A stretch of 64,000 bases of DNA from an uncultured Candidatus Saccharibacteria bacterium (lineage in GTDB: Bacteria; Patescibacteriota; Minisyncoccia; Phycocordibacterales; UBA2100). Position 1 is the first letter of the stretch. The number at the start of each line of letters is the position of its first letter. Location: contig CAZUVH010000001.1 in the NCBI GenBank assembly GCA_964623775.1, positions 284,784 to 348,783 on the forward strand, given 5' to 3'. The position numbers and the translations under genes are program-made. Positions 32,474 to 54,500 of the stretch are shown one piece after another. The notes under the pieces are model-generated. The model was not told the origin of the DNA. It saw only the letters and a list, made by a program, of their open reading frames with translations, and searched no databases.

Positions 32474-32474
32474 C

Positions 32475-38134: not shown

Positions 38135-38161
38135 CCAAACTCAAGCGATACTCGTTGTGGT

Positions 38162-39199: not shown

Positions 39200-39207
39200 G
39201 ACTGCGG

Positions 39208-39236
39208 ATTTTATCTTGCGCGACCCTATTTCGCAA
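39208..39236 (-). promoter_or_regulatory. candidate promoter for gmd (minus strand TTGCGA-17-TAAAAT, ~8 nt before ATG)
   Basis: The reverse complement of 39231–39236 is TTGCGA. A 17-nt spacer follows. The reverse complement of 39208–39213 is TAAAAT. Confidence 0.35.
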
Positions 39237-39353: not shown

Positions 39354-40541
39354 CTACTCCTTGATCAGATTTTGGTAAAAACTGAGCCACTCCGCACTTC
39401 GTTCAGCACCTCTCATTGTGGCGAGTGTTGCCTTGCCGCCATTTTGCAGCCGTTGGCATAGATCTGGATCTCGCATCACGTCTTCGATTCCCCCCGCAAG
39501 TGCGTGTGGGTCCTCTGGTCTTACAAGATACGCATTCTCGCCATGAGTCAGAAAATCTGTGAGCGCGTCCACGCGAGAGGCGATCACGGGCTTATTCATC
39601 TCAAACGCTTCGAGCGGGACGAGTCCGTACCCTTCGTATCTCGAAGGCACTATGATAAGTGAGCTTTTCTCAAATACGCTTTTTAGATCCGTATTCGAAG
39701 GAACTCTGCCGAGAAAGACGACACGATCGCGTATATCAAGTGAATCGACAAGATGCGCGAACTCGTCTGTTTCGATGAGTGAAGATGAGCTTACAAAAAC
39801 GAATTTCGGGAGCACCTCGCGTGAGACATGTGGTATCGCGCGAAGAAGTATGTCCCACCCCTTACGCGGTTTCATCTGGCCGACGAAAAGCCCGTATGAT
39901 TCCTGCGGAAGTCGTCCGACAATCCCGCTGGGTACCTCGGTTGTTTCCCAGCGTTGCTCGTCAGCCACCAAGGGGATATAGCGGGCATTTTTGATCCCGA
40001 GTTCTTGAGCGATTGGTATGTTGTGTTTGGAATAAAAAACCACCGCGTCGGCATGCATGAGCGGCCAGTGGAAAAAATAACTACGCCACGCCTTAAAAGC
40101 GAATCGTTTCGGGACGCGCTCGTATGCGATGGGCTTTCCGAGCGGATCGTCACGATCCTCGACAAGGTAGTGGTCGTGAAGAAGCCCAGCTTCGGTGAAA
40201 GCGACCGGAATTCCAAAAATTTTTGCAAGCATTGCCGCAACGACACCGACCCTGTTGTTACGCAGCATGTGGACGTGAACAGCATCCGGGCGCTCCGTAA
40301 TCATGAGCACTACCACACGCAGCACGCCAGAAAGAAAACTGCGATATTTATGTACATGTACGCCTGACACTGTAGAGTTGGGCATCTCACCTTTTTCCAT
40401 CCGAGCGATTCCCAGCACCCGCCAGCCGTTCTTGGCCAGCATCCTGCTCAGGATGAATTCCGGAAACATCGTGAGGCGATCGTTGAAACCATAGGGGATC
40501 ACGACGAGGATGGTTGGTTGTTTCGTCATGGTTTTACACAA
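39354..40541 (-). CDS. glycosyltransferase family 4
   Basis: The C-terminal GT4 motif is present (FVSSSSLIETDEF…LIIVPSRYEGYGLVPLEAFEMNKPVIASRVDALTDFL…GENAYLV). Confidence 0.85.
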   Translation of the reverse strand: MCKTMTKQPTILVVIPYGFNDRLTMFPEFILSRMLAKNGWRVLGIARMEKGEMPNSTVSGVHVHKYRSFLSGVLRVVVLMITERPDAVHVHMLRNNRVGVVAAMLAKIFGIPVAFTEAGLLHDHYLVEDRDDPLGKPIAYERVPKRFAFKAWRSYFFHWPLMHADAVVFYSKHNIPIAQELGIKNARYIPLVADEQRWETTEVPSGIVGRLPQESYGLFVGQMKPRKGWDILLRAIPHVSREVLPKFVFVSSSSLIETDEFAHLVDSLDIRDRVVFLGRVPSNTDLKSVFEKSSLIIVPSRYEGYGLVPLEAFEMNKPVIASRVDALTDFLTHGENAYLVRPEDPHALAGGIEDVMRDPDLCQRLQNGGKATLATMRGAERSAEWLSFYQNLIKE

Positions 40542-41338
40542 AACACATTAACAGACCCCTCTTTTTCAGGATACTTTCGTATCGAGTCCGCGTAGGGCTT
40601 TTTCAAGACGATCGGTCCCGTGTCCGTGATGACGTGGAGCTGATAGCCATATCTGTCAAAAATATCCAAAAATGCCTCGGGCGTTTTGCCCGAGCGCGAA
40701 AGCGCCGACGGATTATACTCACACACAATACTGGGCGAATCGGTGCGCAATGTCTCTTGCATGCCTTCAAGCGCGCTCCACTCGCCACCCTCTATATCCA
40801 TCTTTATGAGGTGTATTCTTCGGATGCCGTGTTTCCTTTTGAAGATATCAAGCGTTGTGCCCCTCACTGTCGTATGGGTCGCATTATCGGCGCCGACTGT
40901 GGTATGGCAGCCAGTTGACCCCACGACGTGAAAAAAGGAAATCGGCCCCTCTTTTGAAGTGAGCGCCTCGGGAATGGTTTCAACAGTACTAAATCGCGCT
41001 GTATTTTTACGCAGAAGAGCGAGATTTTCCGTGTCGGGTTCAAAGGCATATACTCGACCTTTTGAGCCGACTCGAGTCGCCATGAGCCGAGTGAAGTAGC
41101 CAATGTGCGCCCCCGCATCGACAACCACCATACCTTCTTTGGTAATGCGACGTAAAAGTCGCGATGTCCCGCGTTCGTATGAACCACTGAGCATCTCCCA
41201 CTTCCATCGCCAGCTGAATTTTTTTGGAAACGAAAAGCCTGCGAATGTCGCCAAGAGTGAGACAACGCCCGATATGAAAAGTTTCGCGACGAAGCGCATC
41301 ATGGTCATCTTACACGCGAAAACGGTATTTGACATCAC
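40526..41338 (-). CDS. FkbM-family SAM-dependent methyltransferase with N-terminal TM anchor
   Basis: The Methyltransf_21 pattern is present (VVDAGAHIGYFTRLMATRVGSKGRVYAFEPDTENLALLRKN…IKMDIEGGEWSAL). The N-terminus is hydrophobic (FISGVVSLLATFAGF). Confidence 0.75.
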   Translation of the reverse strand: MMSNTVFACKMTMMRFVAKLFISGVVSLLATFAGFSFPKKFSWRWKWEMLSGSYERGTSRLLRRITKEGMVVVDAGAHIGYFTRLMATRVGSKGRVYAFEPDTENLALLRKNTARFSTVETIPEALTSKEGPISFFHVVGSTGCHTTVGADNATHTTVRGTTLDIFKRKHGIRRIHLIKMDIEGGEWSALEGMQETLRTDSPSIVCEYNPSALSRSGKTPEAFLDIFDRYGYQLHVITDTGPIVLKKPYADSIRKYPEKEGSVNVFCVKP

Positions 41339-41379
41339 TGGCGTTTCTTGGTTTTAAGTGATATTTTGCCCTCTATACC

Positions 41380-42183
41380 ATGGCAAAATCTGACTCAAAA
41401 GGGAGCATCAGCTGGGTAGCGGTATCCGGCGGTTTTGATCCGATCCATATCGGACATGTACGAATGTTAGAGGAGGCCAAAAAATTGGCGGATAAGCTCG
41501 TAGTCATAGTCAATAACGACAATTGGCTTCGCGACAAGAAAGGATACGTGTTCATGCCTCAAAAGGAGCGAGCCGAACTCATCAAATCGTTTCCGTTTGT
41601 AGATAAAGTGGTCGTAACCGATCACAAGAAAAACGATCCGGACAGGAGTGTGGTTCGCGCTCTCGCAAAAATAAAACCAGCGATATTTGCGAACGGGGGA
41701 GATCGAAAAGGTGTACAAGACATTCCTGAAGCACTCCTATGTAAAAAAATGGGCATCAAAATGGTTTTCAATGTCGGATATGGAGGCAAGGTGCAGTCGT
41801 CTTCTTGGATGATTAAAGACGTGAGTCGTAATTTCCTACGGAGCGTTCGTCCATGGGGAGAATTTTATAGCTGGGACAAAGGTGAGCAGTGGAATCTAAA
41901 AACGATCTACATACAGGCCGGCAAGCGACTCTCTCTCCAGTATCACAATCACCGCTCGGAGCTCTGGACACTCGTGCAGGGGGACGCGACTGCCACGATC
42001 GAAGCAAATGGTGAGCTCAAACGCATTCCGCTTATGGTCGGGCAGACCTTTGTCGTACCGAGTCGTGCCCATCATCGTCTCGAATCAAAAAAAGGCGGCA
42101 TACTTGTGGAAGTCGCGCTCGGAAATTTTGATGAAAACGATATTGTGCGCCTCCACGACGATCATGGTCGCACTGGAGCGTGA
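41380..42183 (+). CDS. fusion protein: HIGH-motif cytidylyl/adenylyl-transferase-like domain + type-II phosphomannose-isomerase (ManC C-terminal) cupin domain
   Basis: The N-terminal ~150 aa are WVAVSGGFDPIHIGHVRMLEEAKKLADKLVVIVNNDNWL (HldE-II/TagD-like). The C-terminal ~110 aa are RPWGEFYSWDKGEQWNLKTIYIQAGKRLSLQYHNHRSELWTLVQG…HRLES…VEVALGNFDENDIVRLHDDHGR (ManC PMI cupin signature). Confidence 0.7.
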   Translation: MAKSDSKGSISWVAVSGGFDPIHIGHVRMLEEAKKLADKLVVIVNNDNWLRDKKGYVFMPQKERAELIKSFPFVDKVVVTDHKKNDPDRSVVRALAKIKPAIFANGGDRKGVQDIPEALLCKKMGIKMVFNVGYGGKVQSSSWMIKDVSRNFLRSVRPWGEFYSWDKGEQWNLKTIYIQAGKRLSLQYHNHRSELWTLVQGDATATIEANGELKRIPLMVGQTFVVPSRAHHRLESKKGGILVEVALGNFDENDIVRLHDDHGRTGA

Positions 42184-42274
42184 ACACCGTTTTGCCCCTT
42201 GATTTACGTTACGTTTGTGCCCTATTGACCCCGCGCATTTTTTGAACCAAGATGCACGTGTCAGGCCATATTTC

Positions 42275-43084
42275 ATGAAAAAAAGCGCTAAAATACCAGC
42301 CATTAAGGACATACCCGTAGTCATTTTCTGCGGAGGTAAGGGGACGCGCCTCCGAGAGGAGACTGAGATCATTCCAAAACCAATGGTGCGCATCGGTGAT
42401 AAACCGATCCTGTGGCACATTATGAAGATTTACTACACACAGGGATTTCGCAATTTTATTCTCTTGCTTGGATATAAAGGTGAAAAGATCAAGGATTATT
42501 TTTCAAACTACATGCTCTATGCGAGCGACCTGACGCTTTCGCGCGACGCATGGGGCATGGAAACGAGCTATCATAAAAAGCCGGCCGAAGACTGGCGCAT
42601 TACTTTTGTAGAAACCGGACCCGACACCATGACGGGGGGTCGATTGAAAAGAATAGAGTCTTTCATTCGGGCACCTTTTTTTATGCTCACATATGGTGAT
42701 GGTGTCGCCAACGTCAATTTGAAGGAGCTTATTAAAACGCATTCCGAAAAAGAAGCTCTGGTCACGATCACGGGAGTACATCCACCAGCGCGATTTGGAG
42801 AATTGCATATCGATGACGGGCACGTGGTTGCTTTCAATGAAAAACCAAAAACGGACGCGCTCATCAACGGAGGTTTTTTTGCTGTGGACCGCAAAGTCTT
42901 CAAGCACATACCAAAAGGAGATGAAATCAATTTTGAGATGGATGTACTGCCAGGCATCGCAAAGGATTCAAGAATGGCCGCGCATCGTCATGAAGACTAT
43001 TGGCAATGTATGGATACGATTCGTGACATGGAAGTGCTCAATGAGAAGTGGGCAAGTGGGAAGGCGCCCTGGAAAATATGGTAA
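42275..43084 (+). CDS. rfbF: glucose-1-phosphate cytidylyltransferase
   Basis: It is collinear with Salmonella RfbF/DdhA (VVIFCGGKGTRLREETEIIPKPMVRIGDKPILWHIMKIY…TGPDTMTGGRLKR…TYGDGVANVN…INGGFF…WQCMDTIRD…GKAPWKIW). Confidence 0.9.
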   Translation: MKKSAKIPAIKDIPVVIFCGGKGTRLREETEIIPKPMVRIGDKPILWHIMKIYYTQGFRNFILLLGYKGEKIKDYFSNYMLYASDLTLSRDAWGMETSYHKKPAEDWRITFVETGPDTMTGGRLKRIESFIRAPFFMLTYGDGVANVNLKELIKTHSEKEALVTITGVHPPARFGELHIDDGHVVAFNEKPKTDALINGGFFAVDRKVFKHIPKGDEINFEMDVLPGIAKDSRMAAHRHEDYWQCMDTIRDMEVLNEKWASGKAPWKIW

Positions 43085-44043
43085 AAGATTTTTGGGCCGG
43101 TCGACGCGTGCTCGTGACCGGGGGCGCGGGATTCATCGGATACGCGCTCGCACGCAAACTCCTGGCATCGGGTGCCAAGGTCTCGATTCTTGATATACGA
43201 CCACTTCCTCCGTATGCGACCAAAGAAGAGAAAAAGAAATTCCACTTTGTACGCGGGAGCGTGACTTCGGAAAAGACGGTCGGCGCCATTCTAAAGAGCA
43301 AGAAGATACAGACCGTATTTCATTTGGCCGCGGAGGCGATCGTAGATCGAGCGCTCCACGACCCTGAAAACGCACTTGACTCAAATATTCGCGGGACATG
43401 GGTGCTTCTTGAGAGCGTCCGACAATCGAGGGGTGTGGAAGATATTGTTATCGCGTCCTCTGATCACGTGTACGGAACTGATGCAAAGCCCCCGTTCCAC
43501 GAGAGCTCTCCGCTCGGGGGGAGTAGTCCATACGATATATCAAAAAGTTGCACAGATTTGATCGCAAAGATGTATGCGAAGACGTTCGGGCTACCCATTG
43601 TGATTGCACGCTGCGGCAACGTTTTTGGGCCCGGGGACATGAATTGGACGAGGCTCATACCCGATGCACTGCGCTCACTCTCAAGTGGTAAGCCGCTACA
43701 ACTCCGCAGCAATGGGAAGTTTTCCCGCGACTATGTGTATATCGATGATGTTGTCGATGCGTATATCGCGCTTGCGCGAAATCTTCGGAAGAAGAATTTA
43801 CATGGCGAAGCATTCAACTTTGCCTTTGGAAAACCACTTTCGGTAAAAGCCGTCCTACGGCACATCAAAGAGGGCGCAGGACGATCGGTCCCTTTTACGA
43901 TTGCGAATACCGCACGGCACGAAATCAAGTCGTTGCATTTGGATTCCACAAAAGCAAAACGCATCCTTTCGTGGGCACCTTCCGTATCACGAGAAGAGGG
44001 CTTTAGACGGACTATTGCGTGGTATGCTGATTTCTTCAGTTAG
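43078..44043 (+). CDS. rfbG: CDP-glucose 4,6-dehydratase
   Basis: The N-terminus MVKDFWAGRRVLVTGGAGFIG is collinear with RfbG/DdhB. There is a 7-nt overlap with rfbF. Confidence 0.85.
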   Translation: MVKDFWAGRRVLVTGGAGFIGYALARKLLASGAKVSILDIRPLPPYATKEEKKKFHFVRGSVTSEKTVGAILKSKKIQTVFHLAAEAIVDRALHDPENALDSNIRGTWVLLESVRQSRGVEDIVIASSDHVYGTDAKPPFHESSPLGGSSPYDISKSCTDLIAKMYAKTFGLPIVIARCGNVFGPGDMNWTRLIPDALRSLSSGKPLQLRSNGKFSRDYVYIDDVVDAYIALARNLRKKNLHGEAFNFAFGKPLSVKAVLRHIKEGAGRSVPFTIANTARHEIKSLHLDSTKAKRILSWAPSVSREEGFRRTIAWYADFFS

Positions 44044-44046
44044 ACC

Positions 44047-44742
44047 ATGAGCAGAACGGAACTATCCATCGTCCTCCCCGCATACAACGAATCCGAGCAT
44101 CTTCTGAATGTCGTCAGCGAAATGGCGAGTGTGTTCAATGCGTCAGGGATCTCGTATGAAATTCGTGTCGTGGATAATGGCTCGACTGATTCCACCGAAG
44201 AAGTCATCAAGAAAATCGAAGCAGAAAACCCACACGTCTCCCATCTTCATTTGGAAAAGAATCGCCACTACGGCGGCGGGATCCTTGCGGGACTTGAGGG
44301 CGCAAAAGGTGAGGTGGTTGGGTGGGCGGATGCGGATGGGCAGGTAGACCCAAGGACTATTGTGCAGCTATACAAGGAGATGCGTGAAAAGGGGCTTGAA
44401 TTGGGAAAAGCCGTGCGCGTCGTGCGGCCCGAGGCGCTCGGTAGACGCATCCAGACGAAAGTCTACAACATACTTTTTCGAATTTTTTTCCTCACTTCGT
44501 ATACCGATATGAATGCAAAGCCAAAATTACTTACTCGCAGAGCTGTAGACATCTTGCAGTTACAATCGCACGATTTCTTTCTCGATCCCGAATTCGTGAT
44601 AAAAGCTCTCAGGAATCATGTGCCGATATGCGAGGTTCCCACTGTATGGCGAGAGCGTCAGAGCGGGCGGACCCGTATCCACGTATTGGCCGCACTTCAA
44701 TTTTTGAAATCAATGGTGGTGTATCGGCTCGGATTGAAGTAA
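44047..44742 (+). CDS. glycosyltransferase family 2, polyprenol-phosphate sugar transferase type (DPM1/ArnC-like)
   Basis: The sequence is LSIVLPAYNESEHL…RVVDNGSTDST…GGGILAGLEGAKGEVVGWADADGQ. Confidence 0.8.
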   Translation: MSRTELSIVLPAYNESEHLLNVVSEMASVFNASGISYEIRVVDNGSTDSTEEVIKKIEAENPHVSHLHLEKNRHYGGGILAGLEGAKGEVVGWADADGQVDPRTIVQLYKEMREKGLELGKAVRVVRPEALGRRIQTKVYNILFRIFFLTSYTDMNAKPKLLTRRAVDILQLQSHDFFLDPEFVIKALRNHVPICEVPTVWRERQSGRTRIHVLAALQFLKSMVVYRLGLK

Positions 44743-44760
44743 TATAGTGATCCAATACAT

Positions 44761-46035
44761 ATGAAATATCCAGCGCACCACTTCGTAAAAACCGGACACA
44801 TCACGCATTGCCAGGTATGCAATGGCAAAAAGCTTCACACCATTTTGGATCTCGGTCACCAGCCACTGTGCGACACGCTTCTTACGGAAAAGACGCTCCA
44901 TGAGCCCGAAAAGACATATCCGCTCCGCATGATCTGGTGCGAGAGCTGCACCAACGTCCAGATTGATTACTGCGTCGACGGAAAAGAGGTCTACCACCCG
45001 AAGTATCCTTATAAAAGCGGTGTCACCAAAGAGCTCGTCGCATACCAAGTCAAAATAGCGGAAGGTCTCATCAAAAAATTCGGGTTGAAAAAAGGCGACC
45101 TCGTCGTTGATGTCGGATCCAATGACGGGACGCTTCTCAGTGGTTTCAGGGGCACGGGCGTCAAATTTCTCGGTGTTGAGCCTACTGATATCGCAAAAAT
45201 TGCACGAAAGAACGGTATTCCGACGGTGCAAGCCTTTTTCGACATTAAAACTGCGCGTGAAATAAAGAAAAAGCATGGGCCCGCGTCGGTTGTCGTGACG
45301 ACAAACACGTTTGCTCACATGCAGACACTCGGCGAATTTATCATGGGTGCCCACACGCTCCTTAAGAACGATGGCGTGTTCGTCGCCGAGACACATTATC
45401 TTCTCAACGTCATTGAAGGCGGACAGTTCGATACGATCTATCACGAACACTTGCGCACCTATTGCCTGCGCTCCCTCGTGAGGCTTTTTGATCAATACGA
45501 TTTCACCGTGATCGACGTCGAGCGGGGAGACAGATATGGCGGCAATATCCGCGTGTACGTGCAGAAGGGTAAGGGAAGAAAGGTCTCAAAGGCAGTCGAA
45601 GATTTGCTTGCTCTTGAGAAAAAGTCCGGTCTAGACAAGCTTTCCACCTACACCGTTTTCGCCGATCGCGTGAAAAAGGCGCGGCTGCATTTCATGGACT
45701 TTCTGATTCAGACAAAAGGGGCTGGGAAATCAATTGTAGGCAACTCATGTCCTGGCCGGTGCGCGACACTCCTTAATTATTACGGTGTCGACCGCGAAAT
45801 GATCCCGTATCTCGCGGAACAGCCTGCCTCGCTGAAGCTCGGGCACTATGCCCCCGGCACACACATACCAGTCGTTAATAATCAACGTCTTATCGACGAG
45901 CAACCTGATTACGTAGTGCTCATGGCATGGCACTATGCGCAGCCGATCATGGAACAATTGAAGGCACGCGGACTCCGGTCAGATTTTGTCATCCCACTGC
46001 CTGATTTTCGCATTGTGAAAAATTCGGAAGTATAG
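44761..46035 (+). CDS. NDP-hexose C-methyltransferase (TylCIII-like)
   Basis: The N-terminal zinc ribbon is CQVCNG…CESC. Motif I is LVVDVGSNDGTLL. The C-terminal C-methyltransferase domain is GKSIVGNSCPGRCATLLNYYGV…YVVLMAWHY. Confidence 0.8.
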   Translation: MKYPAHHFVKTGHITHCQVCNGKKLHTILDLGHQPLCDTLLTEKTLHEPEKTYPLRMIWCESCTNVQIDYCVDGKEVYHPKYPYKSGVTKELVAYQVKIAEGLIKKFGLKKGDLVVDVGSNDGTLLSGFRGTGVKFLGVEPTDIAKIARKNGIPTVQAFFDIKTAREIKKKHGPASVVVTTNTFAHMQTLGEFIMGAHTLLKNDGVFVAETHYLLNVIEGGQFDTIYHEHLRTYCLRSLVRLFDQYDFTVIDVERGDRYGGNIRVYVQKGKGRKVSKAVEDLLALEKKSGLDKLSTYTVFADRVKKARLHFMDFLIQTKGAGKSIVGNSCPGRCATLLNYYGVDREMIPYLAEQPASLKLGHYAPGTHIPVVNNQRLIDEQPDYVVLMAWHYAQPIMEQLKARGLRSDFVIPLPDFRIVKNSEV

Positions 46036-46042
46036 TGTCAGT

Positions 46043-46966
46043 ATGGCGAGTATCCGTGTTGCCGTGCTCGGCGCGAGCGGTATCGGAAGATTCCATGTCA
46101 GGGAATTTTTGCGCGCAGGCACCGATGTTGTTTCTATTCTCGGGAGTTCCTCCGAGAGCGCGCAAAATACTGCTACTGCGATTGCGAAGGAATTTGGTAC
46201 GCACCCTCGCGCGTATTCAGATCTCGACACGCTTCTCGAAGAGGAGAAACTCGATGCGGTTTCGATTTGTACTCCGCCACGCCTACATTTTGAGCAGATT
46301 AAACAGTGTCTAAATGCGAAGCTGCATGTTCTTTGCGAGAAGCCCCTTGTGTACGATGGATCGTCCGATACGGGTCCGCAGATCGAAAAACTCTTTCGTC
46401 TCGCGCAGAATCAAGACCGTATTCTTTCCGTAAACACCCAATGGCCCTCGGTTCTCCCGGTGGTATCGCAGTTTGTTGATCTTTCGGATGTGAAAAGTTT
46501 TTCATTTTCATCGCAGCCTGGTGAAGCGGGCGTTGAAATGCTTTTCGATCATCTGCCCCATGCGAATAGCATGCTTGTAAAAATGATTCCAAGAGGTCGA
46601 GTTGCCGATATCTCTTTCGAGATGAAATCATCTAAGGCTATATCGGTTTCGTTCGACTACCATGCAGACGGTTCGGTGTGTCATGTGAGCTATTTATTCC
46701 AGTTCAAAAAAGAGAGACCACGTGATCTTGCGTTTGCTATCAACGACGTGACGTTTGAGCGAGAAATCAAGGGAGGGTATTCGCAGGCGCTCGTAGTAAA
46801 CGGGGAAGCAGTCGCGATAGAAGATCCGTTCAAAACGTCCATCAGTAAATTCGTGAGCGCGATACAAGGAGAAGGAGCGCCCCTCGTTAGCGAGAGGGAA
46901 ATTATTGAGAATGCACACCTACAAGATGCCCTTGTGGCTGCATTCATGACACAATTTGACCAATAG
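46043..46966 (+). CDS. Gfo/Idh/MocA family NAD(P)-dependent oxidoreductase
   Basis: The sequence is IRVAVLGASGIGRFHVREF…AVSICTPPRLHFEQIKQCLNAKLHVLCEKPL. Confidence 0.8.
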   Translation: MASIRVAVLGASGIGRFHVREFLRAGTDVVSILGSSSESAQNTATAIAKEFGTHPRAYSDLDTLLEEEKLDAVSICTPPRLHFEQIKQCLNAKLHVLCEKPLVYDGSSDTGPQIEKLFRLAQNQDRILSVNTQWPSVLPVVSQFVDLSDVKSFSFSSQPGEAGVEMLFDHLPHANSMLVKMIPRGRVADISFEMKSSKAISVSFDYHADGSVCHVSYLFQFKKERPRDLAFAINDVTFEREIKGGYSQALVVNGEAVAIEDPFKTSISKFVSAIQGEGAPLVSEREIIENAHLQDALVAAFMTQFDQ

Positions 46967-47005
46967 TGAATCGGCGATGATACTATTCGGACTTCACGCA
47001 TTTTT

Positions 47006-47863
47006 ATGACCATCACACCCGAGTTGGAAAAAATCCTTGCATGTCCGCACTGCCGTGCCCGCCTACAGACATCCGCAGCAAGTTATATATGCAACACGTG
47101 CGGCAAGGAATATCGAAAGGCGGCGAGTCAGGCCATTTTTGAGACAATAAAATCGAGCGAAAGTAAGGAAGCGGGCGATACACTTTTTTTTACGGTCAAA
47201 AATTTCTTCAAGGCACACGTACCTTGGATTTTTCGGATGGTGTACGAGATCGTGGCGATCGACGTGGGGCCGAAGGCACGCAAACTCGTAGAAAAACTTC
47301 CGGAGAATGCCGTCATTGTAAATGTGGGTTCCGGCGTGAGACATGTCCATCCTCGCGTCATTAATCTCGACCTCAATATGGAGCAAGGCGTCGATCTCGT
47401 CGCAAGTGCGTACCAACTCCCATTCCAAAATGAAAGTGTGGATCTCGTGATCTCTGAGTCCATGCTTGAGCACCTCGAACATCCGGAAATTGCTGTTCAG
47501 GAAATGCATCGCGTTTTAAAGAAAAGTGGCAGAGTGTATATCCTGACACCCTTTATGGTCGGATTTCATTCCTCCCCGAACGATTTTTATCGGTGGACAA
47601 TTCCGGGTATGAAGATCTTTTTGAAGGACTTTGAGGTCACTGAGACGGGGGTTGCCGTGGGGCCGACGTGTGCCCTTACATGGATGATGCGTGAGTGGCT
47701 CGCGATCCTTCTCTCATTTGGTATCAGACCCCTCTACCAAGTATGGTCGCTCTTATTTTTGATACTTTTACTGCCTCTAAACGTCCTCGACCTAGTCCTT
47801 TCTCGGTACAGTTTTAGCTCCCAGATCGCAATGTCCTACTTTTGGATCGCGAGGAAGAAGTAG
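47006..47863 (+). CDS. class I SAM-dependent methyltransferase with N-terminal Trm112-like zinc ribbon and C-terminal TM helices
   Basis: The N-terminus has CPHCRARL…CNTCG. The MTase core is VNVGSGVRH…VDLVISESMLEHLEHP…LKKSGRVYI. The C-terminus is hydrophobic (SLLFLILLLPLNVLDLVL). Confidence 0.75.
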   Translation: MTITPELEKILACPHCRARLQTSAASYICNTCGKEYRKAASQAIFETIKSSESKEAGDTLFFTVKNFFKAHVPWIFRMVYEIVAIDVGPKARKLVEKLPENAVIVNVGSGVRHVHPRVINLDLNMEQGVDLVASAYQLPFQNESVDLVISESMLEHLEHPEIAVQEMHRVLKKSGRVYILTPFMVGFHSSPNDFYRWTIPGMKIFLKDFEVTETGVAVGPTCALTWMMREWLAILLSFGIRPLYQVWSLLFLILLLPLNVLDLVLSRYSFSSQIAMSYFWIARKK

Positions 47864-47880
47864 GGGTATAATGCGACATC

Positions 47881-48732
47881 ATGAATTCGTGCACCATCTG
47901 TGGCTCACAAGACTTTGTACCGTTTAGTACGAAAAATGGCCACAGCATTATTCGCTGCACCGCTTGCGATCTCATATTCGTGTATCCAATACTCGCAGCT
48001 CCGCGAGAAATATATGACCGCAATTATTTCGATGGAGCGGCGAACGGATTTGGCTATACAAATTACGACGAGGACAAGGAGCCAATGCGGCCTGTTTTTT
48101 CAAAATATATTGAAATAATTGATGAGGAGCTTGCGGGGGAAAAGGGCAGGCTGCTTGATGTGGGTGCAGCGACAGGTTTTTTTGTAGCGATGGCTCAAGA
48201 AGCGGGGTATGAGGCGGAGGGGGTCGACATTTCCGAGCACGCTGCCGGAGTGGGCCGGGCAAAAGGCCGCAAAGTGCATGCGGGCACAATCGAGGACATA
48301 CATGGCGTGTACGACTGCATTACAATGCTTGATCTCATCGAGCACGTACCTGATCCGCGATCTGTCATAAAAAAAGCGGCTGCACTTTTGAGAAGCGGGG
48401 GAGTGCTTGTGATTAATGCACCAGACGCGGGAAGTCTGTTGGCCCGAATGCTCGGTAAGCGTTGGCACTTGATTTCCCCACCTGAGCATCTCCATTATTT
48501 CAATCGAAATAACATGCGAAGACTTCTTGAGGAAGAGGGTTTCGAGGTCGTCCGTATCACCACGATCGGAAAATGGTTCACGCTCAAGTACATTTTCAAG
48601 GTGCTTGGTCGGAGCACGCATATCGGGCTGTTTCAGAAAATGAGTGCACTTTTTTCCCATTGGACGCTTGCACGATTTTCGATACCTCTCAATTTGCGCG
48701 ACAATATGTTTGTGATAGCTAAACGATCATGA
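47881..48732 (+). CDS. class I SAM-dependent methyltransferase with N-terminal zinc ribbon
   Basis: The N-terminus has CTICGS…CTACD. Motif I is LLDVGAATGFF, followed by …CITMLDLIEHVPDP…LLRSGGVLVI. Confidence 0.75.
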   Translation: MNSCTICGSQDFVPFSTKNGHSIIRCTACDLIFVYPILAAPREIYDRNYFDGAANGFGYTNYDEDKEPMRPVFSKYIEIIDEELAGEKGRLLDVGAATGFFVAMAQEAGYEAEGVDISEHAAGVGRAKGRKVHAGTIEDIHGVYDCITMLDLIEHVPDPRSVIKKAAALLRSGGVLVINAPDAGSLLARMLGKRWHLISPPEHLHYFNRNNMRRLLEEEGFEVVRITTIGKWFTLKYIFKVLGRSTHIGLFQKMSALFSHWTLARFSIPLNLRDNMFVIAKRS

Positions 48733-50486
48733 TCCGAATCTTGCGAGACCGCATACTTCTCATCACTGTTTTTGTAACGGTGCTGCTTTCGCTTGTGCCC
48801 CTCGTCCAATATCCTTCGTCGGGGAGCAGTTTTGAAGGATTTGTGTATGGGCGCTACATGGACTATTACTACACATCAGTGGCGCGAGAAGTGTATGACG
48901 GGTATCCGCTTCTAGGGAACCCGTTTTTTTATGAGCATAGGGAGTCAATAGCGCCTGCAATGATCCTCCCTTTTCAGATATATGCACTGCCATTGTTTGC
49001 GGGCTTCTCGCTTGCCGCGACCTCCATTTTCAATTTCAGTCTCTGGAGCGTGATTTTCGTGGCCGCCCTCTATCTTATCTTGAGACGACTCACCATTCCT
49101 TCAATATGGGCCGCTGTTGGGAGCGTGTTTGTGTATCTCATCATGTATGGACAGCTTATCCGGGTGGTCTCCATGGAAATGGTGCACCCCGTGTTTCTGC
49201 TTTTCATACTACTTTTCTTTTATTGGTGGGATAAGCCCGGAAAGTATCGCGACACAATCCTCTCACTCGTCATCGCATTCAGTATTTATATATACCCCTA
49301 CTTGCTGCACGTAATTTTCTGGTTCCTAATTATCGTCTTCGGCCAGCTGCTCTATGTGCGTGACAGTGAACGGACCAGGCGTGCGCTCATGGTTGGATTA
49401 ATTACTACGGCGCTCTGCATACCATTCCTGGTGATCACCTGGATCCAGGTGAATAATCCGTATTACGTCGAGTCACTGCTCCGTATCGGCTTAGGGTACA
49501 CACATATACCCTCAGGAGAGGTTGTGCGCGGTGCTATGCGTATATTCCCGATGATCGCGCTTGCGCTCTTGAGCTGGGTGTGGATCTTTCGCAAGAAAAA
49601 TCTCTCAAGTGCCCCGCACCTTTTTCATCTCCTTATTCTTGGAATCGCGATATGGATATCATCCACTGAGAATGTGATCACGGGTCTCGATCTGGAGACG
49701 GCGTCGCATGTCGAGAGGTTCGTCATGCTCTGGTTTTCGATCATGTCGGTCGTTGCTTTGTATTTTCTGTATAGTGCGCGACGCGACATCGCATTCATGA
49801 GTAGTGGTAAAAAGATCACACTCGGACTTCTTGCGGCACTCGTTTTTCTACTTGCGATACCGTATGTAAAAAAAATTGATCCGGCCATACGAGACGCTGA
49901 TGCGAATCGCCTGAAAGCCCAGAAGGCCACGGCAGTGCTACCTGCCTTGCGGTGGCTTGATGCCAGCGCGAAAGGCGCTGTAGTCTGGACGAACCCAGAG
50001 ACCGACCTCAATGCTCATGTGTCGGTGCTCACGACGCAATATACTCTTTTCGGCACCGGTCATTTACATCTCATGCCCACGAGGGACGTTGAAGATCGGT
50101 ATCTCATCGCGCACTCGGCGGGGGAAGTTACACTCGAAAGTATTACAGCTGACGTGTGGGATCACAGTGGTGTAGGTGCCGCGATTGATACACCAAATAC
50201 ACTCAATCGCAGTGTAAAGTTGTGCCGACTTCTCCGACTTCACTATTTTGGTCGCGAGTGTGGCAATCTCACGAATGCGCGGATACTCTATGCAGAGAAT
50301 TATGCGGCCATGTATAACAGGTTTACGAATGAGATTCGGCCACATCTTGCAGAGCAACTTAAAAAATACCACGTCGACTATGTCATTCGAGATACACAAA
50401 CCGACAACGACTTTCATCCCGAGCGTATGGTAAAAATGGAGCTTGTGTATTCAGACGACCGTTTTGAAATCTACAAGACAATATAG
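48729..50486 (+). CDS. polytopic membrane protein with C-terminal soluble domain (candidate GT-C-fold glycosyltransferase)
   Basis: The 585-aa protein has ~10–12 TM segments. Its first extracytoplasmic loop carries the acidic/aromatic motif AREVYDGYPLLGNPFFYEH. The C-terminal ~200 aa are hydrophilic. It is a paralog of the next gene. Confidence 0.4.
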   Translation: MIRILRDRILLITVFVTVLLSLVPLVQYPSSGSSFEGFVYGRYMDYYYTSVAREVYDGYPLLGNPFFYEHRESIAPAMILPFQIYALPLFAGFSLAATSIFNFSLWSVIFVAALYLILRRLTIPSIWAAVGSVFVYLIMYGQLIRVVSMEMVHPVFLLFILLFFYWWDKPGKYRDTILSLVIAFSIYIYPYLLHVIFWFLIIVFGQLLYVRDSERTRRALMVGLITTALCIPFLVITWIQVNNPYYVESLLRIGLGYTHIPSGEVVRGAMRIFPMIALALLSWVWIFRKKNLSSAPHLFHLLILGIAIWISSTENVITGLDLETASHVERFVMLWFSIMSVVALYFLYSARRDIAFMSSGKKITLGLLAALVFLLAIPYVKKIDPAIRDADANRLKAQKATAVLPALRWLDASAKGAVVWTNPETDLNAHVSVLTTQYTLFGTGHLHLMPTRDVEDRYLIAHSAGEVTLESITADVWDHSGVGAAIDTPNTLNRSVKLCRLLRLHYFGRECGNLTNARILYAENYAAMYNRFTNEIRPHLAEQLKKYHVDYVIRDTQTDNDFHPERMVKMELVYSDDRFEIYKTI

Positions 50487-50490
50487 GCCT

Positions 50491-52251
50491 ATGAAGGAAT
50501 TTCTAAAAACGCACAGGATCGCGATGCTCCTCACGCTATTTGTCGGAACTGTCATAGGATTACCCTCGATTCTCGCTCCGCTTGCGATCGGAAGTGCCTA
50601 TCTAGGCATCCCGTTTCTCCCCCTCAGTGATGAATATTTTTACATGTCTCGCATTCGCGAAGTGCTCGACGGTCACCTGTGGACAAATGCGCCGTACGTC
50701 TACGAGTACAAAAGCCTTCTCTCGCCTACATTTCCGGTCAATGAGTGGCTCTATGCAATCCCCGCACTCGTGTTTGGCCTGATCCCCGTCGTAGTAGCGA
50801 GCAAGTTTGTTCTGCCCGCGCTTTTATTTGTATTTTCGTATTTTCTTTTCCTCAGCGTATTCAGACGGGACGATGAGACTACCAGGTGGAGCGCGATTGC
50901 CGGCTCTCTCGTTATTGTATTGGGAACAGAATTTGTTAATTACAGTTATGTTTTCGGCATCTTGGATGGAACGAAGTATCCGATTGAAAATGGATGGACA
51001 CGACTGGTTAACCCGGTAATGGGCGGCGTGCAATTGCTTGCCTTTTTGTTTCTCATTGCAGAAGTGTGGAACCGAGGATGGCGCTATGCGCATATTGCAG
51101 CGGGCATAGTGCTTGCGGGCATGGTCGGGTATTTCTTCAGTTTTGGTCTGGCCCTGTCCATGCTTGCGACACTTTTCCTTTTTGCGCTTGCGAGAAAAGA
51201 ATACAATGTCGCTCGTGCCCTTTTCACGACGGGGGCACTCTCCATTTTTCTCGACGCGTGGTGGTGGTACAAGATGCTCTTTTCGCTCGGTGGGGAAGAG
51301 GGGGCGGCACTGGCCATGCGCAACGGCATGTTTTTCACGCATGAGCCCGTTCTCAACAAAGCACTACTTGCATCCACTGTCGTTGTCGGCGCACTCTTTT
51401 GCTATGTGTACTTTTTCTTGCGCAGGCGCGAGTACATTCGAGAGTATCTCTTTGCTTTCGCCCTCGTCGTGGCTGGCTGGATTGCGTTTAATGAGCAGGT
51501 AATAACGGGGCGACAGGTCTGGCACCATCACTTTATGCAATACACAGTGCCAATGGGGGTTGCGGCAATAATAATAGCGGGATACTACACATTCAGGCAT
51601 CTGAGGTATCTATGGATCTTCGGTACCGGAAGTCTTGCGACCGTTTGCATCGCCTACGGTCTTTATGCCGTCACTGCATACACAGCACCATGGGATATAG
51701 ATCGTCATATCCATGTTCAACGTGCAGCACTTTATACGACATGGTTCCAGCAGAATGCACCCAAAGATTGTGTGGTCCTCGCGAACCCAAACGATATCGA
51801 TGTGTTCGATGAGGAGCGTCTCATCCCCACGTTCTCGCATTGCAATACGTATACCGTTGATTTCGTCCCATTCGGAATTACGCGAGAACGTATCGAGCAC
51901 AATTATTTATTACAACTGCGTATGCGTGGGGTAAGCGCAGCGGGCGTCCGTGAACATCTTTTGGGGCAAGGTGTATGGATTCGTCAGTATTTTTCTTCAG
52001 ATTGGCACCAGGTCTTTGGCTATGAGCGTGGCATGGAGCCGTGGATTCTTGATCGTATTGATCGACTTACGGAGGCATATCAGCATTTCATGAAAGTACC
52101 GCTCGAAACTCAGATCAAGAAATATCGTGTCGACTACATCCTTTCGGAAGGACCACTTCCGAGAAAATTGCTTGCCGAACTACCAGATCTCAAGCTCGTT
52201 GCTTCTCCCGGCATGTACCGCATCTATCAATTTACAGAGTCCGGAGAGTAG
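50491..52251 (+). CDS. polytopic membrane protein, paralog of 48729–50486 (candidate GT-C-fold glycosyltransferase)
   Basis: It shares the loop motif IREVLDGHLWTNAPYVYEY and a related C-terminal tail (KYRVDYILSEG…YRIYQF vs KYHVDYVIRDT…FEIYKT). The start is at MKEFLK. Confidence 0.4.
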   Translation: MKEFLKTHRIAMLLTLFVGTVIGLPSILAPLAIGSAYLGIPFLPLSDEYFYMSRIREVLDGHLWTNAPYVYEYKSLLSPTFPVNEWLYAIPALVFGLIPVVVASKFVLPALLFVFSYFLFLSVFRRDDETTRWSAIAGSLVIVLGTEFVNYSYVFGILDGTKYPIENGWTRLVNPVMGGVQLLAFLFLIAEVWNRGWRYAHIAAGIVLAGMVGYFFSFGLALSMLATLFLFALARKEYNVARALFTTGALSIFLDAWWWYKMLFSLGGEEGAALAMRNGMFFTHEPVLNKALLASTVVVGALFCYVYFFLRRREYIREYLFAFALVVAGWIAFNEQVITGRQVWHHHFMQYTVPMGVAAIIIAGYYTFRHLRYLWIFGTGSLATVCIAYGLYAVTAYTAPWDIDRHIHVQRAALYTTWFQQNAPKDCVVLANPNDIDVFDEERLIPTFSHCNTYTVDFVPFGITRERIEHNYLLQLRMRGVSAAGVREHLLGQGVWIRQYFSSDWHQVFGYERGMEPWILDRIDRLTEAYQHFMKVPLETQIKKYRVDYILSEGPLPRKLLAELPDLKLVASPGMYRIYQFTESGE

Positions 52252-52289
52252 TTGGACGCTTTCAGGGGGCGGGGTACAATGTCGCCCAT

Positions 52290-54500
52290 ATGCTCGAAAA
52301 AATTCTGCGTGGGATAGTCATTACCGGAGTTTTCAGTTTGCCGTTCGTTTGCCTCATTGTCGCGTCATCGATGTTCTTCCCTTTCATTACGGGTAAGAAT
52401 TTCGCGTTCCGCATCATTGTAGACATTATCGTCGGCGCGTGGCTTGCCCTTGCACTTGTCAACGAAAAATATCGTCCCCGTCGATCCTGGATCCTGGGGA
52501 CATTCGCTCTATTTGTACTCATAATGGCGATAGCAAATGCGCAGGGCGTCTATCCCTTCAAGAGCTTCTGGAGCAACTACGAACGCATGGACGGGTGGGT
52601 CACGATTGCCCACACACTGGCATACCTCGTCGTGGCCGCATCAGTGATCGCAAGTGAGAGAATGTGGCGATCCCTGTTTCAGGTCAATCTCGGCGTATCA
52701 GTGTTCTTGAGTGCGTATGGGTTAATGCAGTTGGCGGGGCTCTCTGCACTGGGTCAGGGGGGGAAAGCTGGACTTGCTACAGCTCGTATCGATGCGACTT
52801 TTGGAAACCCGATCTATTTGGCGGTGTACATGCTTTTCAATATCGCGTTCGCCGCACTCCTGTGGGTCCAGATGTCACAGGTACGGCCGGCAGGTAAGCG
52901 CTTGATGCCGTCGCTCTTTTACGGCGGAGTCATTTTATTCGATACATTGGCACTCCTTCTCACTGCGACACGCGGTGCGATGTTCGGGCTCATTGGAGGA
53001 GCGCTGCTCGCCTTGCTGCTCGTGGCCTTTTTCCAAGGGACTCGACGAATACGGACTATCGCAGTCGCATCTCTTGTGGCCGTCGTTGTCTTTGGCGTTG
53101 CCATCAAGCTCGGTAAAGATACGCCACTCGTAAAGAGCATAGGATTCATTGATCGTCTCGCGCAGACAAATCTGGGGGGTACCGTAGAGACCCGATTTCT
53201 CAATGCGGGTATGGCGTGGCAGGGAGTGAAAGAGCGTCCACTCCTTGGTTGGGGGCAGGAAAATTACGCCATTGTTTTCGATAAATATTTCGATCCTCGC
53301 ATGTACCGTGCGGAACCGTGGTTTGACCGAACGCACAACGTCATATTTGACTGGTTCGTTACGGGCGGCATCCTCGGACTTCTCTCGTATCTCTCAATTC
53401 TCGCAGCTGCACTGTGGCTGATTTGGATGCGGGGGATACTTTCGATTCCTGAACGAGCGATATTCACCGGGCTTCTCGCGGGCTATACATTTCAAAACCT
53501 CACGGTTTTTGACAATGTGACCAGTTATATACTTTTTGCGACTGTGCTCGCATACATTGTCTGGCGCGAGCGCGAGGCGGGGAAAAATGCGCCGCTCTTC
53601 ACGAAAAAGCTTCTGCCCGAAAATAGTCTGCCGTTTGTCGCTGTAATCGCAGGTATCGTCACGTTTGCTGCCGTATGGTGGATCAATATTCCCGCGTTGC
53701 AGGCCAATTGGACGCTTCTCAAGGCAGTAGCGCCGCAGCAGGCCGGTGTCACAAAGAATCTCGAATACTTCAAGCAGGCGATCGCATACGGCACGATGGG
53801 CACACAGGAGGCTCGTGAGCAGATCGCGCAGATCTCCGTGCAGGTGCAGGGCTCGAAGCTCGACAATTCGATCAAGCAGGAGTTCTTCAACCTGGCAACT
53901 TCCGAGATGAAAAAGCAAAGCGCAGAGTCGCCGCTTGATGCGCGATTCCCACTCTTCCTCGGGTCTGTCCTCGACGCGTATGGTCAGCATGACGCAGCTG
54001 CAGCCGCTTTCCAGCGGGCACATGAGCTCTCGCCGGCCAAACAAAGCATTCTGTACCTCATGGCGCAAAACGCGATGACGCGTGGTGACAGTGCAGCCGC
54101 ACTGCAACATTTGAAGACAGCGTATGAGGTCCTTCCGGCAAACATAGAAGCACGACTCAACTATGCCGCGATGGCGATCCAGCTGAAGCAGGACGCGCTC
54201 GCCGATGAGTTGCTTGCGCCAGTCATGGCGACAGGGGAGGCGGCCAACAATAAAGTCGCATCCGCGTATCTCGCACGTGGCCGCTACGACAAGATTGCGC
54301 AGATCTGGGAATCGCACATCGTGGCAGTACCGACCGATCTGCAAGGATACTTCACGCTCGCCGCCGCCTATTACGCACTCGGCAACAAGGAAAAATCGAT
54401 CGAAGCTTTACAAAAGGCAAAGGCCGCTATCCCAGCTTCGGCACAACAGGTTGATTCACTCATCATTGAGATTCAAAACGGCACGGTGAAGTTGCAGTAG
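52290..54500 (+). CDS. O-antigen ligase family (Wzy_C) membrane protein fused to C-terminal TPR repeats
   Basis: The N-terminal ~430 aa are multi-TM with Wzy_C-like loop regions (…TFGNPIYLAVYMLFNIAF…LLLTATRGAMFGL…). The C-terminal ~280 aa are helical repeats (…AAAAFQRAHELSPAKQSILYLMAQNAMTRGDSAAALQHLKTAYEVLPANIEARLNYAAM…). Confidence 0.7.
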   Translation: MLEKILRGIVITGVFSLPFVCLIVASSMFFPFITGKNFAFRIIVDIIVGAWLALALVNEKYRPRRSWILGTFALFVLIMAIANAQGVYPFKSFWSNYERMDGWVTIAHTLAYLVVAASVIASERMWRSLFQVNLGVSVFLSAYGLMQLAGLSALGQGGKAGLATARIDATFGNPIYLAVYMLFNIAFAALLWVQMSQVRPAGKRLMPSLFYGGVILFDTLALLLTATRGAMFGLIGGALLALLLVAFFQGTRRIRTIAVASLVAVVVFGVAIKLGKDTPLVKSIGFIDRLAQTNLGGTVETRFLNAGMAWQGVKERPLLGWGQENYAIVFDKYFDPRMYRAEPWFDRTHNVIFDWFVTGGILGLLSYLSILAAALWLIWMRGILSIPERAIFTGLLAGYTFQNLTVFDNVTSYILFATVLAYIVWREREAGKNAPLFTKKLLPENSLPFVAVIAGIVTFAAVWWINIPALQANWTLLKAVAPQQAGVTKNLEYFKQAIAYGTMGTQEAREQIAQISVQVQGSKLDNSIKQEFFNLATSEMKKQSAESPLDARFPLFLGSVLDAYGQHDAAAAAFQRAHELSPAKQSILYLMAQNAMTRGDSAAALQHLKTAYEVLPANIEARLNYAAMAIQLKQDALADELLAPVMATGEAANNKVASAYLARGRYDKIAQIWESHIVAVPTDLQGYFTLAAAYYALGNKEKSIEALQKAKAAIPASAQQVDSLIIEIQNGTVKLQ

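Follow-up and report, generated by a model that had tools for sequence, protein, structure and literature searches.

Organization of the glycan island

We analysed a 64,000-nucleotide stretch of contig CAZUVH010000001.1 (the window), in which a block of genes at 44761-48732 had been flagged in a preliminary description as a dense cluster of S-adenosylmethionine (SAM)-dependent methyltransferases (MTases). The listing of open reading frames (ORFs), together with Pfam scans that covered every gene-like ORF of at least 100 amino acids in the window, revealed a near-continuous run of glycan-biosynthesis genes on the plus strand from base 1 to approximately position 54500, followed downstream by genes for SecA, GatB and an HTH_17 protein. 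More than 50 kb of the window, which contains about 58 genes, is thus given over to one glycan island. The nearest named SecA homologues (74-79% identity) all came from Candidatus Kaiserbacteria, Parcubacteria, Paceibacterota or Patescibacteria, and the closest relatives of two island proteins described below (the MTase M8 and the membrane protein U602) likewise came from genomes of the Candidate Phyla Radiation (CPR). By these homologies, the organism is placed in a Kaiserbacteria-like lineage of the CPR/Patescibacteria. Members of this group generally have very small genomes and depend on contact with the surface of a host cell; to our knowledge, little is known of their surface-glycan chemistry, and literature searches on CPR pseudaminic acid, GT-C glycosyltransferases or methylated glycans returned nothing relevant.

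The flagged block occupies the centre of an array of 11 co-directional genes (41380-54500), which are listed below and are all on the plus strand.

41380-42183, plus strand: nucleotidyltransferase (CTP_transf_like) fused to a mannose-6-phosphate-isomerase-type cupin (Pfam; RfaE-domain-II-like matches), first gene of the array
42215-43084, plus strand: glucose-1-phosphate cytidylyltransferase for cytidine diphosphate (CDP)-glucose (TIGR02623, 313 bits against a cut-off of 300)
43048-44043, plus strand: nucleoside diphosphate (NDP)-hexose 4,6-dehydratase of the short-chain dehydrogenase/reductase (SDR) family (deoxythymidine diphosphate (dTDP)-glucose and CDP-glucose 4,6-dehydratase models, E = 2e-55 and 2e-53)
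44047-44742, plus strand: small family 2 glycosyltransferase (GT2) of 231 amino acids, ArnC-like, candidate polyprenyl-phosphate sugar synthase
44761-46035, plus strand: MTase M7 (Methyltransf_13, Methyltransf_23 and Methyltransf_14)
46043-46966, plus strand: GFO/IDH/MocA NAD(P) oxidoreductase (Pfam E = 6.5e-26), putative ketoreductase partner of M7
47006-47863, plus strand: MTase M8 (Methyltransf_11) with a Trm112-like zinc ribbon
47881-48732, plus strand: MTase M9 with a Cys4 zinc ribbon and Methyltransf_23 (E = 9e-30)
48729-50486, plus strand: U585, a polytopic membrane protein of 585 amino acids with about 10 hydrophobic segments, paralogue of U602 and putative GT-C glycosyltransferase
50491-52251 (ORF opens at 50443), plus strand: U602, 586-602 amino acids, predicted GT-C-fold glycosyltransferase (structure model and Foldseek)
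52290-54500, plus strand: Wzy_C (O-antigen-ligase-like) polytopic protein with a C-terminal TPR domain (Pfam), at the end of the island

Intergenic spacing within the array ranged from -44 to +39 bp. Because a promoter and terminator scan of positions 38000-57900 gave results at chance level (21 versus 20.8 and 22 versus 20.8), the operon structure is proposed from this spacing only. The longest ORFs at 42215 and 50443 both open with TTG, with upstream-gene overlaps of 37 and 44 bp, and later starts at 42275 (269 amino acids) and 50491 (586 amino acids) are backed by public gene calls and by homologues.

The C-methyltransferase M7 and its sugar supply

Three Pfam domains were found in M7 (PF08421, the N-terminal Cys4 zinc-binding domain Methyltransf_13, E = 9e-20; PF13489, E = 7e-14; and PF08484, Methyltransf_14, E = 4e-42), and its residues 14-415 aligned with MtmC (4rv9, E = 8e-73), KijD1 and TcaB9. 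Residues C17, C20, C60 and C63 lined up with cysteines of these three enzymes, the SAM motif VVDVGSNDG followed the G-x-N-D/T-G pattern of the family, and the sequence FDTIYHEH was identical in MtmC and aligned with FDQIYDEH of TcaB9 and KijD1. By analogy with TcaB9, the residues of this Y-x-E-H motif are presumably catalytic. M7 is therefore, by sequence, a bona fide homologue of the NDP-hexose 3-C-methyltransferases of the TylCIII/TcaB9/MtmC type.

All proteins of the window were used as tblastn queries against 82 loci with M8 homologues, and gene tables were compiled around U602 homologues (loci are numbered here with the prefix L). The substrate of M7 could be supplied by the glucose-1-phosphate cytidylyltransferase and 4,6-dehydratase encoded upstream, and this co-occurrence was conserved: a five-gene module comprising the small GT2, the C-methyltransferase, the GFO oxidoreductase, the cytidylyltransferase and the dehydratase recurred in L039 (Parcubacteria) and L056 (Saccharibacteria), where the M7 orthologues were 76% and 73% identical, respectively. 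The pair of C-methyltransferase and GFO oxidoreductase was found in both of these loci and in L006. Homologues of the first gene of the array (64-66% identity) adjoined GtrA and GT2 genes in the CPR loci L006 and L087.

The best solved relatives of the small GT2 were all polyprenyl-phosphate sugar synthases (ArnC, E = 3e-16; GtrB, 2.6e-10; DPMS, 1.2e-9), and its top NCBIfam matches were PgfS, ArnC, AglJ and PpgS. Its length is comparable only to that of PpgS-like short forms (a 226-position profile).

A hydrophobic hairpin in M8

M8 belongs to a small family, with 45 matches in 5.8 billion proteins. Its N-terminus matched the Trm112/UPF0434 zinc ribbons, and the family retained the zinc-ribbon cysteines, a GxG motif, an invariant E-H pair and a hydrophobic C-terminal region. 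In an AlphaFold2 model of M8 (pLDDT 87.4), helices 220-237 and 241-265 formed a hairpin (Kyte-Doolittle hydrophobicity 2.31 over 19 residues), after which a last beta-strand (277-284) returned into the Rossmann sheet. This predicted topology points to a protein that associates with the membrane in a monotopic or re-entrant manner, or else to a hydrophobic lid over the substrate, rather than to a transmembrane tail. The MTases M2 (at 3758-4708, described below) and M9, which are 25% identical to each other (E = 3e-17), end in short strand-like tails (FAIAKMR and FVIAKRS) comparable to WIARKK in M8, which suggests that they may share its topology while differing in hydrophobicity. The structural neighbours of M8 were generic class I MTases, including RlmA(I), which combines a zinc ribbon with an MTase domain, and the sugar O-methyltransferases AtmM and RebM; the catalytic domain of M9 was distantly related to KijD1 and TcaB9 (E of about 1e-7).

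U585 and U602 represent a GT-C family lacking a Pfam model

The M9 gene overlaps the start of the U585 gene by 4 bp, and U585 and U602 were 23% identical over their full length (E = 1e-13). Neither protein matched any entry of Pfam or NCBIfam, even at E<=1, or of the PDB when searched by sequence. An assignment came only from structure prediction with Foldseek. The AlphaFold2 model of U602, built from a 45-sequence alignment, had a pLDDT of 93.6 and a pTM of 0.92, and consisted of a polytopic membrane domain with the GT-C fold followed by a C-terminal extracytoplasmic domain. All 19 PDB entries matched by Foldseek at E<=1e-3 were PglB, STT3, AglB or AftA (probability 1.00, TM-scores 0.42-0.52). 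Conserved acidic positions were placed in the first external loop by the secondary-structure string of the model, rather than by its coordinates: E57, D60 and E72 were acidic in all 45 sequences and E48 in 43, while position 47 was Asp in 35 of the 45. On the strength of this model, U602 can be confidently predicted to be a GT-C glycosyltransferase of a previously undescribed family, and U585 would be a GT-C protein by paralogy with it. The 73 homologues of U602 were all unnamed or 'hypothetical', those with a named organism were from the CPR only, and U585, U602 and these 70-odd relatives can now be relabelled GT-C glycosyltransferases.

Methyltransferase and GT-C genes are paired across CPR loci

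An M8 or M8-like gene directly adjoined a U602 homologue in 11 CPR loci and additionally in L087, L088 and L089 (at least 14 loci in total). The locus L089, whose SecA is 81% identical to that of the window, encoded in order an M9 homologue (70%), a U585 homologue (49%), an MTase, an M8-like MTase, a U602 homologue (48%), a Wzy_C-TPR protein (62%), SecA, GatB and the HTH_17 protein, with the 70% M9 homologue lying directly upstream of the U585 homologue. In related CPR genomes each GT-C paralogue thus has an MTase of its own directly upstream, and we regard M8 with U602, and M9 with U585, as candidate cognate pairs. The island of L087 ended in the same way as that of L089, and both held Wzy_C-TPR orthologues (48-62% identity) at the same position.

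Over a longer range (47006-63980), the MTase gene or genes, GT-C, Wzy_C-TPR, SecA, GatB and HTH_17 genes were syntenic with L087 and L089, and the upstream sugar-pathway genes differed between genomes; by this comparison the region resembles a glycan cassette of variable content that occupies a fixed chromosomal site. The loci L005, L006, L087 and L088 additionally encoded an asparagine-synthase-like amidotransferase (approximately 620 amino acids) beside GT2 and MTase genes, along with GtrA and PMT_2, and the window contained neither such an amidotransferase nor a GtrA or PMT_2 gene. GtrA and PMT_2 genes were often added in related loci. Between the Wzy_C-TPR and SecA genes of the window lies a gene for a 956-amino-acid protein with an LCAT/PGAP1-like alpha/beta-hydrolase core (54601-57471), which was not at that position in L087 or L089.

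The pairing bears on the possibility that the MTases beside the GT-C genes cap and terminate a growing lipid-linked chain, thereby controlling its length as does WbdD of E. coli O8/O9a, rather than modifying a monosaccharide donor. Methyl caps at the non-reducing end are known to terminate lipid-linked polysaccharides, as with WbdD, the MTases here have membrane-associating elements, and the island encodes a Wzy_C-TPR protein as well as an ABC transporter (9578-11380). However, M8 and M9 lack a kinase or coiled-coil ruler domain of the WbdD kind, and the MTases are tied specifically to GT-C genes whereas the ABC transporter lies about 37 kb away, and we therefore consider chain capping very unlikely.

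A proposed pathway for a C-branched surface sugar

We propose instead that the array synthesises a 6-deoxyhexose that is C-branched and probably O-methylated, and exports it for use in a cell-surface glycoconjugate, the flagged block being the tailoring core of the array; we assign this reading a probability of roughly 0.55. In this pathway, glucose-1-phosphate would be converted to CDP-glucose by the product of the gene at 42215, and CDP-glucose to a CDP-4-keto-6-deoxyhexose by that of the gene at 43048. M7 would then methylate C-3 by the enolate mechanism known from TylCIII, TcaB9 and MtmC, yielding a sugar whose identity and stereochemistry we infer, and the GFO oxidoreductase (46043), in its putative role as ketoreductase, would reduce the keto group. 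The small ArnC/GtrB-like GT2 (44047) may move the sugar onto polyprenyl phosphate, its predicted acceptor. M8, presumably associated with the membrane through its hydrophobic hairpin, and M9 could O-methylate the sugar at the membrane, both the stage and the atom being predictions. After the lipid-linked sugar had been flipped, U585 and U602 would pass the sugar or sugars to an extracytoplasmic acceptor, presumably a protein or a wall glycopolymer, and the Wzy_C-TPR protein would ligate or polymerise the main undecaprenyl-diphosphate-linked glycan, carrying pseudaminic-acid derivatives, heptose and 6-deoxyhexoses encoded upstream. The remaining six MTases would serve other branches, namely another C-methylated (amino) sugar, the decoration of pseudaminic acid, and a 6-deoxyhexose derived from guanosine diphosphate (GDP)-linked precursors and methylated by the FkbM-type enzyme. 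The first three steps draw on strong homology and conserved synteny, and those that follow on family resemblance and gene pairing.

Several observations weigh against this proposal. The 4,6-dehydratase scored below both the CDP and the dTDP equivalog cut-offs. The GFO oxidoreductase matched GFO_IDH_MocA through its NAD-binding domain alone, and MtmC-like enzymes can reduce the 4-keto group themselves. The NCBIfam scores of the small GT2 all fell well short of the cut-offs (66 against 500 in one case), and this protein could be an ordinary GT-A enzyme acting on a glycan. The TM-scores of U602 were moderate, and the glycan product as a whole is a prediction from sequences and models.

Further points against the proposal would fit an arrangement in which the three MTases of the block act in the cytoplasm on a soluble CDP-sugar, as in antibiotic deoxysugar pathways, with the GT2 being an ordinary Leloir glycosyltransferase onto an undecaprenyl-diphosphate-linked oligosaccharide, the hydrophobic segments serving as lids or as surfaces for oligomerisation, and the GT-C proteins handling another sugar. 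The relatives of M7 act on NDP-sugars, and the soluble enzymes AtmM and RebM are among the structural neighbours of M8. Outside the CPR, M8 homologues were found near genes for DegT aminotransferases, which are NDP-sugar enzymes (about 51 of the 82 loci), and not near GT-C genes, so that the M8 family may act on an amino sugar or an NDP-sugar and not on a lipid-linked one. Judged from its 231 amino acids, the GT2 is too short for the C-terminal transmembrane helices of ArnC (327 amino acids) and GtrB (341 amino acids), and a GtrA-type flippase (GtrA_DPMS_TM) was absent among the window ORFs of at least 100 amino acids, those below 100 amino acids lying outside the scan; GtrA was present in the related loci L005, L006, L087 and L088. 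Set against these points are the tight adjacency of MTase and GT-C genes in CPR loci, including the 4-bp overlap of M9 with U585, the very hydrophobic and conserved hairpin of M8, and the exclusive resemblance of the GT2, among its best matches, to polyprenyl-phosphate sugar synthases. We regard purely cytoplasmic tailoring as rather unlikely. The preliminary description had suggested that membrane-anchored MTases act on a lipid-linked intermediate, and this suggestion has gained support from the ArnC/GtrB/DPMS-like GT2, the two GT-C-type transferases, and the recurrence of MTase/GT-C pairs across CPR genomes.

Nine methyltransferases in the window

In addition to the three MTases of the block, six others were found in the window, at the positions given in the preliminary description.

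3-995 (ORF 45-995), plus strand: MTase M1 (Methyltransf_14, E = 6e-53), with a frame open to base 3 and a protein cut by the window edge
3758-4708, plus strand: MTase M2 with a Cys4 ribbon and Methyltransf_23 (E = 3e-27), hydrophobic at residues 285-303 and ending in a short strand-like tail
24595-25749, plus strand: MTase M3 with a Cys4 ribbon and weak Methyltransf_23 (29.3 bits against a cut-off of 27), and a 150-amino-acid C-terminal domain lacking an assignment
31820-32473, plus strand: MTase M4 (Methyltransf_11/25)
35974-36591, plus strand: MTase M5 (Methyltransf_25)
40526-41338, minus strand: FkbM-type MTase M6 (PF05050, Methyltransf_21, E = 1e-26, 94.2 bits against 22.7) with an N-terminal hydrophobic helix

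Where the preliminary description had counted at least nine MTases, we found exactly nine: all nine passed the thresholds of SAM-MTase Pfam families, and no MTase domain was detected by Pfam in the remaining 48 or so ORFs of at least 100 amino acids. For nine MTases among 58 genes the binomial probability was 7e-9, about 2e-6 or about 2e-3, given an assumed rather than measured background of 1, 2 or 5% of genes encoding class I MTases. The concentration of SAM-MTases inside the glycan-biosynthesis island is therefore real and non-random.

Several details of that description required revision. Its account of the block (a C-methyltransferase, an oxidoreductase and two further zinc-ribbon MTases) agreed with the Pfam matches and CxxC pairs, and its single FkbM-type enzyme was recovered as M6. 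Of its three TylCIII-type C-methyltransferases, only M1 and M7 have a Methyltransf_14 domain. Its four Cys4 zinc ribbons became five, since N-terminal CxxC...CxxC pairs occur in the MTases at 3758, 24595, 44761, 47006 and 47881 (the N-terminus of 45-995 lies beyond the window). The WbuX proteins of the island also have such pairs, which could be taken wrongly for MTase zinc ribbons. Hydrophobic anchors in at least three MTases were borne out insofar as strong hydrophobic 19-mers occur in those at 3758 (C-terminal region), 40526 (N-terminus) and 47006 (C-terminal region), but that of 47006 is the helical hairpin within the catalytic fold and not a transmembrane tail.

M1, which was 34% identical to M7 and has the SAM and C-terminal domains of the TylCIII family, is followed by a DegT aminotransferase gene (996-2198), an order that suggests a second C-methylated (amino) sugar. 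M3 was considered as a third such enzyme, its C-terminal domain resembling Methyltransf_14 by eye, and this candidate was rejected after BLASTP, a PDB search and a permissive Pfam scan were all empty. Specifically, PF08484 was not found in M3 at E<=0.01, nor at E<=1 with the isolated C-terminal domain; the C-terminal domains of M3 and M7 showed no similarity by BLASTP (E = 0.67); and no solved relative appeared in the PDB at E<=1. The closest paralogue of M3 in the window was M9.

The count of nine need not imply an unusually methylated glycan if some of these proteins are degenerate paralogues or act on lipids, proteins or small molecules. M3 would fit such an explanation, as it barely passes Pfam, has the non-canonical motif I EVGSNND, and has neither a solved relative nor an assigned C-terminal domain; M8 has an Asn in motif I in place of the usual acidic residue; and the NCBIfam matches of M8 and M9 were generic and sub-threshold (UbiE/UbiG/ArsM-like). 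The preliminary description had itself raised the loss of SAM-binding residues in several of the enzymes, but the glycine-rich motif I was recognisable in all nine, being least canonical in 24595 and in 47006 (NVGSGV, conserved family-wide). Moreover, the M8 motif was invariant in 22 family members, which points to selection and not decay, every MTase lies amid sugar-nucleotide or glycosyltransferase genes, and other glycan loci of the CPR contain these families too. We accordingly give this explanation little credence.

Other sugar branches of the island

Several separate sugar branches of the island were identified with NCBIfam, as follows.

Pseudaminic-acid branch: PseB, PseC, PseI, two WbuX plus HisH/HisF sets, GNATs, an ATP-grasp ligase and two cytidylyltransferases
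GDP-mannose branch, minus strand, a divergent unit: Gmd (38162-39301), a family 4 glycosyltransferase (GT4; 39354-40541) and the FkbM-type MTase M6
Heptose branch: SIS isomerase, PfkB kinase and a family 9 glycosyltransferase (GT9)
CDP-glucose branch: glucose-1-phosphate cytidylyltransferase (above its cut-off) and 4,6-dehydratase, encoded immediately ahead of the flagged block

The pseudaminic-acid enzymes PseC (432 against a cut-off of 423.5) and PseI (455.8 against 340) exceeded their thresholds and PseB (398.8) fell just under its own (407.75); in NCBIfam searches PseG was not identified in the window, and PseF-type cytidylyltransferases gave weak matches only. These genes suggested a flagellin-glycosylation island, a reading that we did not adopt, as the window yielded neither a flagellin nor a Maf gene. 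The GT9, heptose and Wzy_C genes similarly suggested a lipopolysaccharide (LPS) O-antigen, which we set aside since the organism belongs to the CPR, a lineage generally regarded as lacking an outer membrane and LPS; lipid A genes lay outside this check.

We assigned M1 to M6 to branches from gene position only. M4 is nested between HisF2 and WbuX2 of an acetamidino-forming amidotransferase set, a position that would suit N-methylation of the acetamidino group of pseudaminic acid; Campylobacter and Legionella are known to have nonulosonic acids with an N-methylacetimidoyl group. M3 and M5 are encoded among the pseudaminic-acid tailoring genes, M5 being downstream of PseI and an amidohydrolase, and the M2 gene lies between those for a GT4 and a GT9. 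The pair formed by M6 and its GT4 was conserved in L088. The nine MTases would thus belong to four or more branches (those of pseudaminic-acid derivatives, of a GDP-6-deoxyhexose, of the CDP-hexose, and of the C-methyl amino sugar at the start of the window), and the methyl groups would fall on several sugars and probably on different kinds of atom (C, O and possibly N). Some of them may reside on the N-acyl or acetamidino groups that decorate pseudaminic acid and not on sugar hydroxyls.

The single hyper-methylated, C-branched glycan of the preliminary description remains plausible, and at least two sugar 3-C-methyltransferase homologues are present, but the spread of the MTases over these branches makes one such glycan an over-reading. 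Its rarity in bacteria was only partly apt, as L005, L006 and L088 are equally MTase-dense (5-7 MTase genes per approximately 20 genes) and extensively methylated surface glycans are known, for example in Kuenenia (PMC5088730).

Some further features of the island were noted. Two complete acetamidino-forming sets of WbuX, HisH and HisF occur at 11405-14300 and 30419-33632, M4 being inside the second. Just upstream of PseB (16293-20394) are genes for alpha and beta subunits resembling those of succinyl-CoA ligase (with a citrate-binding domain of the ATP-citrate-lyase type), for a class III aminotransferase, and for a protein that consists solely of a citrate-synthase C-terminal domain; such an acyl-CoA or organic-acid module is unusual in a nonulosonic-acid cluster and may be the source of a rare N-acyl group. 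Heptose-type genes at 4740-9578 and 41380-42183 (a GT9 heptosyltransferase-like protein, the SIS isomerase, the PfkB kinase and the RfaE-domain-II-like nucleotidyltransferase-cupin) would, in a CPR organism, imply heptose in a non-LPS glycan. Two proteins of 475-511 amino acids (14845-16272 and 36599-38134) had weak Capsule_synth (KpsC/KpsS-like) similarity and are candidate CMP-nonulosonic-acid (cytidine monophosphate-linked) transferases, and homologues of the second occurred in five M8-containing CPR loci. A gene for a 23S-rRNA-intervening-sequence protein (four-helix bundle) lies inside the island at 6036-6407.

Relation to known systems and significance

M7 shares with the TylCIII/EryBIII/TcaB9/KijD1/MtmC group its three-domain architecture, zinc ligands and Y-x-E-H motif, and M1 shares the SAM and C-terminal domains. 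Characterised members of this group act on dTDP-sugars in actinomycete antibiotic pathways with an SDR 4-ketoreductase as partner, whereas here the supply would come from a CDP-glucose synthase, the partner would be a GFO-family enzyme, the destination a surface glycan, and the organism is a CPR bacterium. The pathway proposed for virenose (6-deoxy-3-C-methylhexose) in the O-antigen of Coxiella burnetii (PMC3539893) follows the same logic, from NDP-hexose through a 4,6-dehydratase and TylCIII-type C-3 methylation to 4-keto reduction. In Coxiella, however, the proposed carrier is dTDP or GDP and the sugar is assembled into LPS, whereas in this array the carrier would be CDP, there are extra putative O-methyltransferases, and delivery would apparently proceed through a polyprenyl-phosphate sugar and GT-C enzymes.

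That mode of delivery resembles the streptococcal Pgf system, with a GT-A enzyme (PgfS) and two GT-C enzymes (PgfM1/PgfM2) (PMC12041528), as well as ArnC/ArnT, GtrB/GtrC and mycobacterial PpgS/Rv3779, in having a small GT-A protein, here beside two polytopic GT-C-fold proteins. It differs in that the GT-C family has no Pfam model and no solved relative detectable by sequence, each member has a dedicated MTase, the predicted sugar is a deoxyhexose with a C-methyl group and not GalNAc, Ara4N or Glc, and GtrA was not found in the window. For methylation during surface-glycan assembly, precedents are provided by the S-layer O-glycan of Kuenenia stuttgartiensis, which is extensively methylated (methyl-HexNAc and a putative di-methyl-deoxyhexose; PMC5088730), and by AglP, a SAM MTase of the N-glycosylation pathway of Haloferax volcanii cited in the same paper, which we liken to the present enzymes by role and not by sequence. 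Neither system is known to have C-methyltransferases or MTase/GT-C gene pairs, in contrast to the window, which has both. The presence of many MTases in a glycan island is thus a variation on known themes, and what is newer is the CPR origin, the undescribed GT-C family, and the MTase/GT-C pairs at a fixed site of variable content.

The locus provides testable enzyme candidates for a CDP-linked 3-C-methyl-6-deoxyhexose pathway, a GT-C family lacking an existing model, and conserved MTase/GT-C pairs. If these pairs methylate lipid-linked donors, they would represent an unusual organisation of glycan methylation and a handle on strain-level variation of CPR surfaces. It is possible, although we hold the idea only tentatively and as doubtful, that they constitute a device specific to the Kaiserbacteria-like CPR lineage, in which each undescribed GT-C protein is paired with its own membrane-associated MTase, a polyprenyl-phosphate-linked and partly C-branched sugar is methylated and then transferred outside, and the upstream cassettes are swapped between strains at a fixed site before secA. 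If this were true, these bacteria would present a hypervariable, heavily methylated surface that could govern recognition of the episymbionts by their hosts or by phages.

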